Source of the DNA: an uncultured bacterium
GTDB lineage: Bacteria; Actinomycetota; Acidimicrobiia; Spongiisociales; UBA5794
Direction: 5' to 3'
DNA: 64,000 nt
Assembly: GCA_963801165.1 (NCBI GenBank)
Contig: CAWDDT010000006.1
Span: 512,001 to 576,000, forward strand
Below the pieces are notes generated by a model. The model was not told the origin of the DNA. It made no database searches and worked only from the letters and a program-made list of their open reading frames with translations. Of this stretch, positions 6,168 through 10,514 are shown in pieces (position 1 is the first letter of the stretch; each line of letters opens with the position of its first letter). The translations under genes were made by a program, and so were the position numbers.

Positions 6168-7688
6168 ATGAATCACGAGAGGCATATCGACGCTGTCCAA
6201 CGGCGTCGTGCGAGCCGGCCACGCGTTTCGCTTTGCTGGATTCTGGCAATCGCATTTTTGCTCGGTAGCTGCTCGGCCGACGAACCTGCGCCGCAATGGG
6301 GAACCAACGCCGATACCTTCTTCGCTGAATGGGACGCTGCCTGGTCTGGCGCTGATCCCTACGACATAGTGCGCTTCTATGACACCGACGTCGTCGTCGG
6401 GCTCATCCAGGACTACCGCTCATTGTCTCTTGGCGCCGGGTTCAGCGACACGGCCGTAACCGGAGACGGACGCGCCTGGCTGACGGATTGGATCGACAAA
6501 CAGATCGAGCCGCGGCAACGAGCCCTGGACCATGTGTACGTCGGTCGGTCCGAAGCGCTGGCGTTGGTCACGATCGATGAAGATGAGACGGCGGTCGCAG
6601 TGTCGATGACCGTCACCGACACATCGATCACTGCATCCACGGACATGAGATGGCGGGACGCTCATCTGCCCGGCGGCGCTCCCGACAATCGTCTCCAGTG
6701 GTTGGACGATTTGGCTACGACCTACGCGGCGGCCTGGACCACCGGTGACGAGAAACTGCGGGCGCTCTACCAGCCCGGGGCCACGATCGAGGCATTCTCT
6801 CAACCAGAGGTGGATTTGGATACCGCCCTGTCCATGGCCGACCTGAGGTATGGAGACGCTGTGGTCAGCGATGTGGCCACGGGCGAGCGCGCCGGTCCTG
6901 CACTCTTCATCGGACCCGACTCGGCCGCAATCGGTCTCGAAGCCAAGCGAGACGACGGTTGCCTGGTGCAGTCGGTGGTGCTTTTCACGCTCCAGGATCA
7001 GAAGATCGTGACGGAGAAGCGGCTACTCACCCCCGACTCGGTACGGCGGTGCTTCGGCAACGATGCACCCGCCCGGGGTTGGTGGAACGCCCTGGCTGTC
7101 CCCGTACCCGTCGATGAACAGGTCAGCGGATCCGTAACCGCAAACGACGGAACTGAGATCACGATCGTCAACGGCACGCCCGAGCTCGAGCGGCTTCTCG
7201 AGTGGGGTCTGGGTCGCTTCGAGGCAACCGGTCTTCCGGCACCACGGCTGGCGTCGGCGACCTTTGCGCCGGTTCCCGCGTGTGCATCCGCCCCGGGCCT
7301 GGTGACCGAGACAGTCAAGGACAAGGCAGATCTGATCCTGTGCACCGACGCCTACGAGGCCTGCCTGCCAGACCGAGCATCGTGCACGGACTTTCAACCC
7401 AGCGTCCGGCTCGGCATGCTCCACGAACTCGGCCATGCCTGGCTGCTCGAGAATCTCAGCGCAAAGACTGAATCAGAGTTCCTGGCCCTCAATGACCTGT
7501 CGTCGTGGGGAGACCCCGCCCAGCCCTGGCACCGGCGTGGCGCCGAGCAGGCTGCCGAGACCATGGCTTGGGGCCTGCTCGAACAGCCGATCAGCCTGTT
7601 CCGCATCGGCAATCCGCCCTGTGACACGATTGCGGCCGGGTTCGAGTTGCTGACGGGAACCGCATCGCTGCACGGATGCGAAGGCTGA
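6168..7688 (+). CDS. Putative lipoprotein with SnoaL/NTF2-like segments and C-terminal HExxH metallopeptidase-like domain
   Basis: LLGSC lipobox; two 'AW....D....Y' SnoaL-like stretches; MLHELGHAW followed by AEQAAE; true start uncertain. Confidence 0.55.
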   Translation: MNHERHIDAVQRRRASRPRVSLCWILAIAFLLGSCSADEPAPQWGTNADTFFAEWDAAWSGADPYDIVRFYDTDVVVGLIQDYRSLSLGAGFSDTAVTGDGRAWLTDWIDKQIEPRQRALDHVYVGRSEALALVTIDEDETAVAVSMTVTDTSITASTDMRWRDAHLPGGAPDNRLQWLDDLATTYAAAWTTGDEKLRALYQPGATIEAFSQPEVDLDTALSMADLRYGDAVVSDVATGERAGPALFIGPDSAAIGLEAKRDDGCLVQSVVLFTLQDQKIVTEKRLLTPDSVRRCFGNDAPARGWWNALAVPVPVDEQVSGSVTANDGTEITIVNGTPELERLLEWGLGRFEATGLPAPRLASATFAPVPACASAPGLVTETVKDKADLILCTDAYEACLPDRASCTDFQPSVRLGMLHELGHAWLLENLSAKTESEFLALNDLSSWGDPAQPWHRRGAEQAAETMAWGLLEQPISLFRIGNPPCDTIAAGFELLTGTASLHGCEG

Positions 7689-7767
7689 CCGAACGGGCGC
7701 GACAGAGCTGCCGCGTCCGTCGGCGGGTTTGGAATCTGGTGCGCACTGGGTTTGTTGGAGGCTCGTT

Positions 7768-8669
7768 CTATTGGTTTCCAGTCAGTTGTTTTGCTCGTTG
7801 TTGGGCATGGTAGGTGTCCTCGAATTCGGTCGGGGGGACGTCGTTGAGGTAGCTGTGGATCCGCTGGGTGTTATACCAATGGATCCAGCCCAAGGTAGCG
7901 AGTTCGACGTCTTCGATGCTGCGCCACGGGCCATGATCCGGTCCGTAGATCAGCTCGGCTTTGTAGAGACTGTTGACGGACTCGGCGAGTGCGTTGTCAT
8001 ACGAATCACCGACCGTCCCGATCGATGGCACCGCTCCGATCTCGTCAAGGCGTTCCCGTAGCGGATACTGGTGAATTGGCTGCCGGCATCGGAATGAGCA
8101 ACGAGCCCTTCAAGACGGGTGCCTCGGGCGAAACGGGCCATCTCTAAAGCGTCGAGGACCATCTGGGTTCTCATATTCGAAGCGACCCGCCACCCGACGA
8201 TGTGGCGGGAGAACGCATCGATGATGAAACACACATACCCAACACCTTGCCAGGTCGGGACATAGGTCAGGTCCGTCACCCACAGCCGGTTCGGCCGGTC
8301 GGCTGTGAAGTCCCGCTCCACCAGATCCGGGGATCTCTCAGCAGCAGGATCAGATTTGGTGGTGCGAACCCGGCGACGACGTGACACACCCTGAATATCG
8401 AGGGCTTTCATGAGACGTCCGACCTGGTCACGGCCAATCGTATGGCCGTCACGTAACGCAGCCTTCCACAGTTTGCGGACCCCATACACCGAGTAGTTCG
8501 CCTGAAACAGCGCCAACAAGACCGGCATCATCACCGCATCCCTGATCGCACGAGCCGACGGTATCCGAGACTTGTTCTCGTAATACGTTGACGGGGCCAC
8601 CTGCAACGTCGCACAGATAGGCTCGACCCCAAAGTCGTCACGATTCTCGTCAATGAACTGCACCATCAC
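7768..8669 (-). pseudogene. IS3 transposase OrfB (rve/DDE), single-base frameshift near 8055
   Basis: WVTDLTY, HSDAGSQF, SYDNALAESVN; ORFs 7950-8669 and 7768-8031 join if one G is restored in a G run (YGERLDEIG); may be a sequencing error. Confidence 0.88.
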
Positions 8670-8696
8670 CTCTGTGGGCGGTCGAGCTAATGGCAG

Positions 8697-8880
8697 CAGT
8701 GAGCCGGCCTTTTGGGGCAGGATTCATCCGGCGGCCATCGGGTCAGCACTAGGTCGAGTGGCACTTTGAGTACTTGGCGGAGATCGTGCGCCCGGTGGCT
8801 GTCGAGAGACGTGGATGGCTGGTGGGATGACGTGCCATAGAGCACTGGGCCATTAGCGAGCCGCATCGTCTCTTGCGCCA
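8697..8880 (+). ncRNA. IS110 bridge RNA (5' hairpin, target-binding loop, donor-binding loop)
   Basis: Guides GGTCGAG (8752-58), GGCGGAG (8776-82), GGTGGGATG (8821-29), GCCATTAG (8849-56) inside two stem/internal-loop modules; RNA ends approximate. Confidence 0.85.
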
Positions 8881-8903
8881 ACTTAACCGAACGGAGGAAG
8901 CCT

Positions 8904-10122
8904 ATGCGTTCAGTGTTCGTCGGTCACGATTGGGCCGAAGACCATCACGACATCCACATCGAGAACAGTGAAGGTGAGCGGCTTCATGCTTGCCGCCTCG
9001 ACGACGGGCTCGAAGGCGTCCGACGTCTGCATTCAGTACTCGCAGAACTCGCCGATGACCCGTCGCAGGTCGTGATTGCCACCGAGACCGACCGTGGGTT
9101 GTTCATCACCGCCATGATCGCCGCCGGCTATCAGGTGATCGCGATCAACCCCATGTCGACGGCCCGTTACCGACGAACGCCGGTCAACATCCGGTGCCAA
9201 GTCCGACCGAGGCGATGCGCAGACCCTCGCCGAGGTCGCACGCCTCGACAGCCACAACCACCGGCTCCTAGAACCCGACAGCGACCTTGCTGACGCGATC
9301 AAACACACCGCCAGGGCGCACCAGAACCTGATCTGGACTCGCCAACGCCAGCTCAACCAGCTCCGCTCGGTCCTACGCGAGTTTTTCCCCGCCGCGCTGG
9401 CGACCTTCCCCGAACTGGCACACAGCGACTGCCTCGCCACCCTTGCGGTCGCTCCTTCACCAGCAGCAGTCCACAGCCTGAGCACCGTCCGGATCGCAGC
9501 CGCGCTCCGCCGCGGGGGAACCAAACGCGGCGCCGATGCCAAAGCCGCGACGATCCGGCAAAACCTGCGAGCCGATCAGCTCCGAGCCCCCAAACAGCTC
9601 GAGGCAGCAATGAGCTCCCATGTCACCGCCCTTGTCGCTGTCGCCACCGAACTCTCCCAACAGATCAACCGGCTAGAAACCGAACTCACCGAACTACTCG
9701 ACCAGCACCCCCACGCCAAGATCCTCCAATCGATACCCGGGCTCGGCACCAAACTCGCCGCCCGGCTCCTCGGTGAGTTCGGAGACGCCCCCGACCGCTT
9801 CACCGACGCCCGCAGCCGCAAGAACTATGCCGGCACCTCACCCATCACCAAAGCATCAGGTCGCAGCCACATCGTCATCGCCCGTCGCATCCGCAACACC
9901 CGCCTCGCCGACGCCTGCCACCAATGGGCCTTCGCCAGCCTCTCCCACAGCCCCGGCGCCCGCACGTTCTATGACCAACGCCGAAACCGAGGAGACAGCC
10001 ACAACCGCGCACTAAGAGCCCTATCAAACCGGCTCGTCGGCATCGCTCACGGCTGCCTCACACACCAAACCCCCTACGACGAACACACCGCCTGGGGACA
10101 CCGCTACAACCTCGTCACTTGA
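8904..10122 (+). pseudogene. IS110 DEDD recombinase (about 405 aa), +1 frameshift near 9173
   Basis: GGAGG RBS; VGHDWAEDHHD, IATET, (after frameshift) SGAKSDRGDA, SIPGLG, AGTSPITKASG, ALRALSNRL. Confidence 0.9.
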
Positions 10123-10144
10123 CTTTTCTCCGGGTGGGATGTCT
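10119..10144 (+). promoter_or_regulatory. -35 half of a circle-junction promoter in the IS110 right end
   Basis: TTGACT (10119-24), 17 nt, then T-CT plus left-end AAT gives TCTAAT after circularisation. Confidence 0.8.
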
Positions 10145-10463
10145 CCGCCGCAAAGAAAGCCGAAGCCCGCTTCAAAATCTCGTTCGCTCGACGTAACTCC
10201 CGGTTCTCCTGCTCAAGCTTCTTCATCTTGACTCGCTCCGCAGAAGTGATGCCCGCAACACCCCCAGCATCAATCTCAGCTTGGGCCACCCAACGGCGCA
10301 CCGACTCAGAGCCGTAACCCAACTGGTCAGCGACCCGAACCACCGTCCCCTGCGACTCCCCAAGTTCCTCACGAAGCTGGAAAACAAGACGAACCGCCCC
10401 ATCCTTCTCCTCCTTCGTATACCGCCGTATGGTCGGCTTCCCCGGTGATAACTCTCTCGACAT
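10145..10463 (-). pseudogene. IS3 transposase OrfA (HTH), split near its C-terminus by IS110 (rest at 8666-8688)
   Basis: RRYTKEEKDGAVRLV, ESVRRWV, ENRELRRANEILKRASAFFAAE|LDRPQR*. Confidence 0.9.
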
Positions 10464-10514
10464 GGCTCTCATCCTTCCACACTCGAGAGTCTCCAAGAAT
10501 CCCAGGGCGAACCA

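Follow-up and report, generated by a model that had tools for sequence, protein, structure and literature searches.

ISEc21, a member of the IS110 family of insertion sequences (IS) with its guide RNA (seekRNA or bridge RNA) in upstream non-coding sequence, has been reported to target a conserved stretch of some IS3-family elements, namely the codons surrounding the DDE motif's second D in ISCfr6, ISEc92 and ISEc93 (Siddiquee et al. 2024, PMC11187229). IS621 carries a two-loop bridge RNA in its left end, uses a CT core and is directed at targets of about 14 nt (PMC13604230), which are repetitive extragenic palindromic (REP) elements of E. coli; its left target guide (LTG) pairs with the target's bottom strand, and its right target guide (RTG) with the top strand (Durrant 2024, PMC11208160). 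For ISPpu10 a dual-match logic has been reported, in which a GC-rich stem-loop within the target, a Pseudomonas intergenic repeat, comes in besides the paired bases (preprint 10.64898/2026.03.19.712850). On the side of the targeted elements, a frameshift structure of the apical loop-internal loop (ALIL) type serves IS3411 and no fewer than 27 further IS elements (Mazauric et al. 2008, via Atkins et al. 2016, PMC5009743), in which the apical loop of stem-loop 1 pairs with the internal loop of a second stem-loop located 44-104 nt further 3' (PMC5009743). Here we analyse a stretch of 64,000 nucleotides from an uncultured bacterium of the Acidimicrobiia, Actinomycetota (assembly GCA_963801165.1, contig CAWDDT010000006.1, positions 512,001 to 576,000; this whole stretch is called the window), in which an IS110-family element lies within an IS3-family element. 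Very probably, it is a bridge-RNA-guided element set to GGTCGAG-CT-CCGCC, the DNA that encodes stem-loop 1 in the ALIL-type -1 frameshift signal where orfA and orfB of IS3 overlap.

Results

The inserted block and the parts of its host on which this conclusion rests are as follows.

8689..10144 (+): IS110-family insertion sequence, 1456 bp including the right CT core, antisense to the IS3 element
8680..8688 (+): left target half GGTCGAG and left CT; in the IS3 RNA, the loop and 3' arm of stem-loop 1
10145..10149 (+): right target half CCGCC, read in the IS3 RNA as GGCGG (stem-loop 1, 5' arm)
8592..8679 (-): 3' part of the ALIL signal (Rfam RF01497), comprising the spacer and stem-loop 2 with internal loop GGGGUCGAGCC
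10155-10158 (+ strand coordinates, read on -): likely shift site U_UUC, 5 nt before the hairpin

Read on the plus strand, the left junction is ...ctctgtgggcGGTCGAG-CT followed by aatggcagc... (8680-8688/8689) and the right junction ...ccgggtgggatgt-CT followed by CCGCCgcaaagaaagcc... (10143-10144/10145), with the CT core standing once at each side of the 1456-bp block. A repeat search of the window reported no inverted repeat between the ends, and the combination of absent terminal inverted repeats, a short shared core and no target duplication is that of an IS110-type insertion. Without the block, the IS3 strand reads GCT TTC TTT GCG GCG GAG CTC GAC CGC CCA CAG AGG TGA, and the two flanks, translated separately, give ...ASAFFAA, E and LDRPQR*, OrfA ending in ...ASAFFAAELDRPQR*. 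This strand holds the hairpin GGCGG-AGCTCGA-CCGCC. In plus-strand reading, the 14-nt target GGTCGAGCTCCGCC makes up positions 4-17 of this hairpin, and the CT core is formed by the final two loop bases, adjoining the stem arm. Junctions and flank translation thus agree with the restored strand and the hairpin that had been put forward in an earlier note on this DNA.

That note had also placed the insertion in a frameshift-stimulating pseudoknot, and both the Rfam model and the Pfam domains on either side support the reading of the site as stem-loop 1 of an ALIL-type signal. Its position at the overlap of orfA and orfB, with orfB in the -1 frame, fits such a signal. RF01497 matches 8592-8705 (-) with 48.5 bits (E 1e-10), just below the gathering score of 50; the match loses only five stem-1 pairs, because the 5' arm has been replaced by IS110 sequence and now lies 1.46 kb away. 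The second IS3 element of this genome (L155; contig 9 of genome G000, positions ~844-1922), which is uninterrupted, scores 83.6 bits, has the hairpin with 13 of the 14 target bases (the mismatch being in one outer base) and carries an orfB open reading frame (ORF) of 243 aa, apparently truncated when set against the 333 aa of the homologue in the related genome G013 (L002). The covariance model was scored on the interrupted site and on this intact sister. Partial ALIL matches also adjoin the left end of other copies of the element, with 48.5 bits in L076 as in the window, 49.6 in L081, 47.4 in L032 and 38.0 in L031. As for the pseudoknot itself, GCTCGAC at plus-strand 8621-8627 (RNA partner GUCGAGC) is the reverse complement of the stem-loop 1 loop, and the duplex of the loop AGCUCGA with the internal loop has 6 bp at -9.3 kcal/mol, its partner lying 60 nt 3' on the IS3 RNA, within the published range of spacings. 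The shift site in the window is only a U_UUC tetramer, a Z_ZZN type described as a shift-site concept (PMC4066793), whereas the sister element has the heptamer T_TTT_TTC at the same place. The pseudoknot is the target of the IS110 element, not the IS110 element itself.

The guides that specify this target lie in the left end of the element.

8738..8865 (+): bridge RNA region, 5' non-coding, within the 215 nt between left end and start codon
8752-8759 (+): LTG GGTCGAGT, target-binding loop, same sense as the left target
8776-8782 (+): RTG GGCGGAG, target-binding loop, complement of CTCCGCC (right target and core)
8821-8829 (+): left donor guide (LDG) GGTGGGATG, donor-binding loop, identical to the right end at 10133-10141
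8850-8856 (+): right donor guide (RDG) CCATTAG, donor-binding loop, complement of core and left end CTAATGG

LTG and RTG flank a small hairpin inside a stem, and LDG and RDG flank a second hairpin. Under the published strand rule, the guides specify GGTCGAG-CT-CCGCC, which is exactly the 14-nt site at which the earlier note had supposed the element to be aimed. A consensus fold of 42 relatives shows a basal stem and an inner hairpin flanking two unpaired, variable guide stretches, and compensatory changes in 9 of the 23 predicted pairs support the closing stem of the target loop and its inner hairpin. RNAalifold pairs LDG with RDG and so draws the donor loop differently; structural support is confined to the target loop. 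No Rfam family matches the bridge RNA region at E <= 10.

Guides and flanks also vary together across relatives. Starting from 118 tabulated elements, 97 had both ends found, 80 of these had full 14-nt flanks and 75 were unique; removal of 12 without anchor motifs left 63 (L076, which duplicates the window, was excluded). In 41 of these 63 own pairs, versus 140 of 3906 mismatched pairs, RTG is identical to the five bases on the right side of the core, and at least four of the five agree in 55. The five bases on the left side of the core are found within LTG in 18 of 63 own pairs, versus 87 of 3906 mismatched ones. Together with the covariation in the stem, this argues that the IS110 family is guide-programmed, and that its member in the window is set for GGTCGAG-CT-CCGCC. 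The left core copy is TT instead of CT in L032 and L081, in agreement with the U that LTG holds opposite the core C; in the other clade members described below this position is a G-U wobble. One element on a metagenome contig outside that clade (L134) has the same RTG (complement CTCCGCC) and a different LTG, and its site reads CGCGAGCT followed by CTCTGCC, with one mismatch in the right half, which looks like half-shared guide programming.

The element is present as a single copy in this genome. Among 101 related genomes, the sole full-length copy is that of G013, with 81% identical DNA, the same ends and the same two junctions, and its IS3 host has both orfA and orfB intact. In a scan with one genome per species, 45 loci were found and 37 tabulated, the partial or distant L062, L063, L066, L068, L069, L072, L073 and L074 being dropped. 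Three of the 37 are at the hairpin site (L030, L031 and L032), and these are the three most similar to the copy in G013 (100, 77 and 68% protein identity); all other tabulated loci, with at most 66% identity, are elsewhere. Out of 80 metagenome loci, L075 (91%) and L076 (84%) show both junctions at the hairpin site and L081 (64%) shows the left junction only, adjoining its ALIL match, while the remaining 77 occupy many different sites. In a tree of 111 transposases, which took in loci translating without stop over at least 380 aa and thus left out the frameshifted gene of the window, these six (L030, L031, L032, L075, L076 and L081) form one clade with a support of 0.999. The hairpin site is occupied by 6 of 6 elements inside the clade and by 0 of 105 outside it. 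Its members have 64-100% protein identity to the closest intact copy (G013), with branch lengths up to 0.7, and in the radiation that forms its sister group nearly all elements have other targets. All recovered copies of this lineage are thus in the IS3 hairpin and none lie outside, as the earlier note would have it; the outcome that it had named as refuting, with most other copies away from IS3, did not turn up, and judging from the tree the IS3-hairpin specificity is apparently an old and stable trait of one IS110 clade.

Across the clade, the left flank is the same in L002/L030, L031, L075 and L076, with TT for CT in L032 and L081, and the right flank is the same in L002/L030, L031, L032, L075 and L076; the orientation is always antisense to IS3. 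In L081, unlike in all other members, the 98 bases that remain before the contig stops contain neither a recognisable right end nor a -35 TTGAC motif, and its 3' region may be a rearrangement or part of a chimeric contig. A search of 401 genomes of the order for the left-junction pattern gave 5 matches, 2 of them real cases, as compared to about 13 in the reversed control; the matches in G311, G323 and G350 lie within ordinary genes and were rejected as chance.

The IS3 elements that carry these guests are not one and the same. Their flanks encode five different OrfA C-termini, and the IS3 of the window and that of G013 share 48% (OrfB) and 44% (OrfA) protein identity, versus about 84% for their guests. 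At the nucleotide level, the conserved flanks are 70-84% and the guests 74-90% identical, and the similarities are incongruent: the guests of L030 and L075 are the closest (90%), while the flank of L075 is nearer to that of L032 (84%) than to that of L030 (80%). Moreover, an empty allele of the window IS3 exists. A contig from a public soil metagenome run (X4) contains a near-identical IS3 in which 8686 is joined to 10143 with a two-base overlap; it skips exactly the 1456 bases 8687-10142 / 8689-10144, with 3 differing letters over 8300-8686 and 16 over 10143-10500, and this run also contains IS110 pieces. Two further runs (X1 and X2) show a variant left end, with 10 differences over 105 bases, fused to another IS3-like flank. 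The composite of the window recurs in L076, at 99.4% identity over 2617 bases. The different hosts, the incongruence, the empty allele and the variant in X1 and X2 make a single ancient composite unlikely.

How good a harbour the hairpin offers can be judged from its conservation. The ALIL model finds 41 sites in 27 of 126 genomes of the family, 40 of which are unoccupied, and 32 of these 40 carry the perfect 14-mer. The earlier note had described the site as escape-resistant, and this holds for the majority; the other 8, among them the second IS3 of this genome, lack a perfect match. It had further described the site as multicopy, which is borne out by relatives with up to 5 model matches rather than by this genome, which has 2 ALIL sites, one of them occupied. 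The count of occupied against empty sites that it had proposed was therefore made in relatives, this genome offering too few, and gave 2 occupied (in this genome and in G013) versus 40 unoccupied; G013 keeps an empty perfect site (L187) beside the occupied one. An enrichment of the raw 14-mer was also tried and rejected, as its 77 sites stand against about 86 in the reversed control (summed control columns). Composition predicts 0.19 occurrences of the 14-mer for this genome, and 0 intact ones are present. Given this expectation, the same junctions in five IS3 contexts and the join in X4 indicate that insertion at the hairpin is more than chance. Among 30 inspected perfect 14-mers, 13 have the 17-nt hairpin, all 13 in IS3, and the 17 others lack it. 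So far, no recovered copy of the clade resides in an ordinary-gene 14-mer, possible reasons being that insertions doing harm are lost, that the complete stem-loop is required, or that the sample is small.

The remaining parts of the IS110 element are the following.

8904..10122 (+): IS110 DEDD/serine recombinase gene, out of frame through one extra base near 9173
10119..10144 (+): IS110 right end, with a -35-like TTGACT overlapping the stop codon, a 17-nt spacer and T-CT

The recombinase ORFs 8904-9293 and 9610-10122 are in different frames, with Pfam PF01548 on the first (46.8 bits) and PF02371 on the second (55.7 bits); the intact homologue of 407 aa in L002 has both on one protein (103.9 and 55.4 bits). 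The extra base is missing from L076 and likewise from contigs of public runs X1, X2 and X3, so an intact recombinase gene is the common form, and the frame break in the window appears to be a mutation private to this genome bin or an assembly error. At the right end, GCTTGAC is retained in nearly all relatives. Circle formation would join T-CT to the AAT of the left end, giving TCTAAT as the -10 of a putative junction promoter.

Discussion

In this study, we describe an IS110 element whose anatomy, guide-target match and recurrence in different IS3 elements, together with an empty allele of its site, are observed directly. Under the reading that it is guided to the frameshift hairpin, the donor loop would hold the joined ends of the circular IS, and strand exchange at the CT core would insert the element without duplication, always antisense to IS3. 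From this, we infer how an active element would affect its host and why it would be kept there. The insert would destroy stem 1 and put 1.46 kb between the shift site and orfB, and the interrupted IS3 copy should be unable to make the OrfAB fusion transposase while the guest is present. This loss of OrfAB would follow from the anatomy alone, since orfA and orfB are split and stem 1 is gone. As IS110 elements have been reported to excise scarlessly (PMC11208160), the block of IS3 may be reversible. For the guest, the harbour would be a site fixed by both a peptide (AELDR) and an RNA structure, found in most IS3 copies that have an ALIL signal, of no harm to the host cell and carried along with IS3.

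One insertion sequence with a DEDD transposase from another subgroup, in which the guide RNA lies downstream of tnp, occupies and disables a conserved site of another mobile element. The target there is a transposase-binding end, as opposed to the translational recoding structure here. With ISEc21, the present element shares its family, the guide RNA in upstream non-coding sequence, the choice of a conserved stretch of some IS3 elements and an order in which the bottom-strand match lies 5' of the top-strand match; circle-junction promoters have been reported for ISEc21 itself (PMC11187229). The clade described here differs in taking the stem-loop 1 hairpin at the orfA/orfB overlap, and in occurring in Acidimicrobiia-type Actinomycetota; the likeness concerns guide and target. 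IS621 has in common with it a left-end bridge RNA of two loops, a CT core, the strand rule for LTG and RTG, and the target length, whereas the REP elements of IS621 are replaced by the recoding signal of another transposable element. The GC-rich stem-loop recalls ISPpu10, although a structural requirement is for the present element only a proposal. As such, the view in the earlier note that this target class was undescribed does not hold in general, ISEc21 already having been reported in IS3 members, though at the DDE codons: an IS110 element aimed at IS3 is known, and the frameshift hairpin as a target was not found in print. Our literature search found no paper linking IS110 to an ALIL or frameshift hairpin, nor one on a whole clade holding one IS3 site, and 'IS3' is absent from the main text of Durrant 2024 (PMC11208160); the supplementary target lists of PMC11187229 and PMC11208160 may hold more.

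Several results weigh against a dedicated relationship between this element and the IS3 hairpin. The element is rare: the 401 genomes of the order yielded 2 real cases, this genome has 1 copy, and the best relative among 72,556 plasmids reaches 56%. The cases are few (both junctions in five contexts, the left one alone in L081), and all come from metagenome-assembled genomes or metagenome contigs, where repeats assemble badly. Furthermore, the 14-mer is not private to IS3: 45 of its 77 perfect sites in the 126 family genomes lie outside ALIL matches, and 17 of the 30 that were inspected are in ordinary genes, so that the elimination of damaging insertions may account for residence in IS3 no less than aiming does. 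In the window, the guest itself has the look of a pseudogene and sits in an IS3 that is broken too, and no circle junction was seen among the run contigs. On the structural side, RNAfold of the restored 134 nt gives a fold no better than shuffles (z = -0.23), hence the structural call rests on the covariance model and not on energy. The IS3 of L030, lastly, has no ALIL match at E <= 0.01 despite its 17-nt hairpin, and judging from this case, the target is presumably the hairpin and not the whole pseudoknot.

So what exactly does the element recognise? It is possible, though we would give it less than even weight, that a DNA stem-loop formed by the GGCGG/CCGCC arms acts as a second, structural determinant and that pairing over 14 nt is insufficient, which would refine rather than exclude guidance to the hairpin. 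The 17-nt palindromic hairpin is complete in each of the five fully resolved contexts, although only 14 nt of it are guided, and the 17-mer was found exclusively in IS3 among the inspected 14-mers. With 42% of the perfect sites in ALIL matches, and provided that the contexts are independent, the probability of finding five of five in IS3 is roughly 0.013, and the dual-match logic of ISPpu10 offers a precedent. However, purifying selection against insertions in genes predicts the same bias, and the three extra bases belong to conserved IS3 sequence anyway.

A further question is whether the guest does more than reside. That the element is kept because it suppresses IS3, in a defence-like or competitive manner and beyond the use of a harmless landing pad, seems unlikely to us. 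In its favour, the insertion necessarily splits orfA from orfB and removes stem 1, the orientation is without exception antisense, and with ISEc21 a second IS110 lineage also targets an essential IS3 site. Conversely, occupancy is low, G013 retains its empty perfect site alongside the occupied one, and there is one guest copy per genome where seen. Of the earlier suggestion that use of the site disables the IS3, the loss of OrfAB in the occupied copy would therefore stand, and deliberate suppression would go beyond it. Less probable still is an action in trans, by which the bridge RNA might compete with or replace stem-loop 2 on every intact IS3 and so tune OrfAB frameshifting genome-wide. LTG sits in an internal loop that has the arrangement, and nearly the sequence, of its counterpart in ALIL stem-loop 2. 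The complement of LTG on the IS3 mRNA spans the apical loop and the 3' arm of stem-loop 1, with a predicted -16.4 kcal/mol versus -19.0 for the native partner, and the second ALIL component has been reported to work to some extent in trans (PMC5009743).

The weakest alternative, that a single old insertion into one ancestral IS3 was followed by spread and divergence of the composite, which would leave the shared position uninformative on targeting, can draw on L076 as proof that composites persist and spread and on the overlap between flank and guest nucleotide identities, but is barely credible given host proteins that differ far more than their guests, the incongruent similarities, IS3 frames in L002 that are intact where long neutral decay would be expected to have broken them, the empty allele, and guides that fit the site and, family-wide, vary in step with the flanks.

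If the element is indeed guided to the frameshift hairpin, a natural bridge-RNA guide can stay fixed over deep divergence while sister lineages re-programme freely, and what it stays fixed on is a structure for translational recoding in another transposon. Alongside ISEc21, this makes IS3 elements a recurrent host of IS110-type guests at two different essential sites, and points to a regular parasite-of-parasite relation among insertion sequences. For annotation, interrupted IS3 copies and sub-threshold ALIL matches in Actinomycetota are worth checking for IS110 guests. For engineering, a recombinase that naturally targets a short hairpin provides a natural setting in which to ask whether bridge recombination is gated by the structure of its target DNA.

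Host element and neighbouring features

The host IS3 element in the window comprises the following.

7737..10514 (-): host IS3-family element, ~1.32 kb minus the insert, ends approximate
7768..8669 (-): IS3 orfB (transposase part with the integrase core), split between two frames around 7950-8031
10146..10463 (-): IS3 orfA, with terminus ...ASAFFAA(E)

Its assignment to the IS3 family follows from an orfA with a helix-turn-helix domain (Pfam HTH_Tnp_1) and a DDE integrase-core orfB in the -1 frame (HTH_21, rve and rve_3), with terminal inverted repeats recognised by eye only: TGGTGCGCACTGGGTTTGTTGGAG at 7737 and an imperfect inverted partner ...CCCAGGGCGAACCA ending at 10514, a pair that the repeat search left unreported. 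The stop of orfA falls six codons past the hairpin site, and the interrupted OrfA now terminates in 12 foreign residues. The two pieces of orfB are the overlapping minus-strand ORFs 7950-8669 and 7768-8031, and given the identity over the adjacent stretch, this break is probably common to the window and L076. The host copy was probably either already decaying before the IS110 arrived or decayed afterwards.

Within the IS110 element, Rfam Ms_AS-4 (RF02464), an antisense small RNA family of Actinobacteria, matches 9737-9813 (-) of the window, antisense to the recombinase gene. It does so at the same place in L030, L031, L075 and L076, with 44.6-47.4 bits compared to a gathering score of 50. This family may be just a conserved segment of IS110-type transposase genes read backwards. 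Three IS110 relatives in neighbouring genomes (L006, L019 and L028) adjoin GC-rich palindromes, e.g. CTACCC...GGGGGG, that may be REP-like targets. Directly adjoining the IS3 end, at 6168-7688 (+) of the window, lies an ORF of 506 aa with a signal-like N-terminus and a HELGH motif, resembling a zinc protease.

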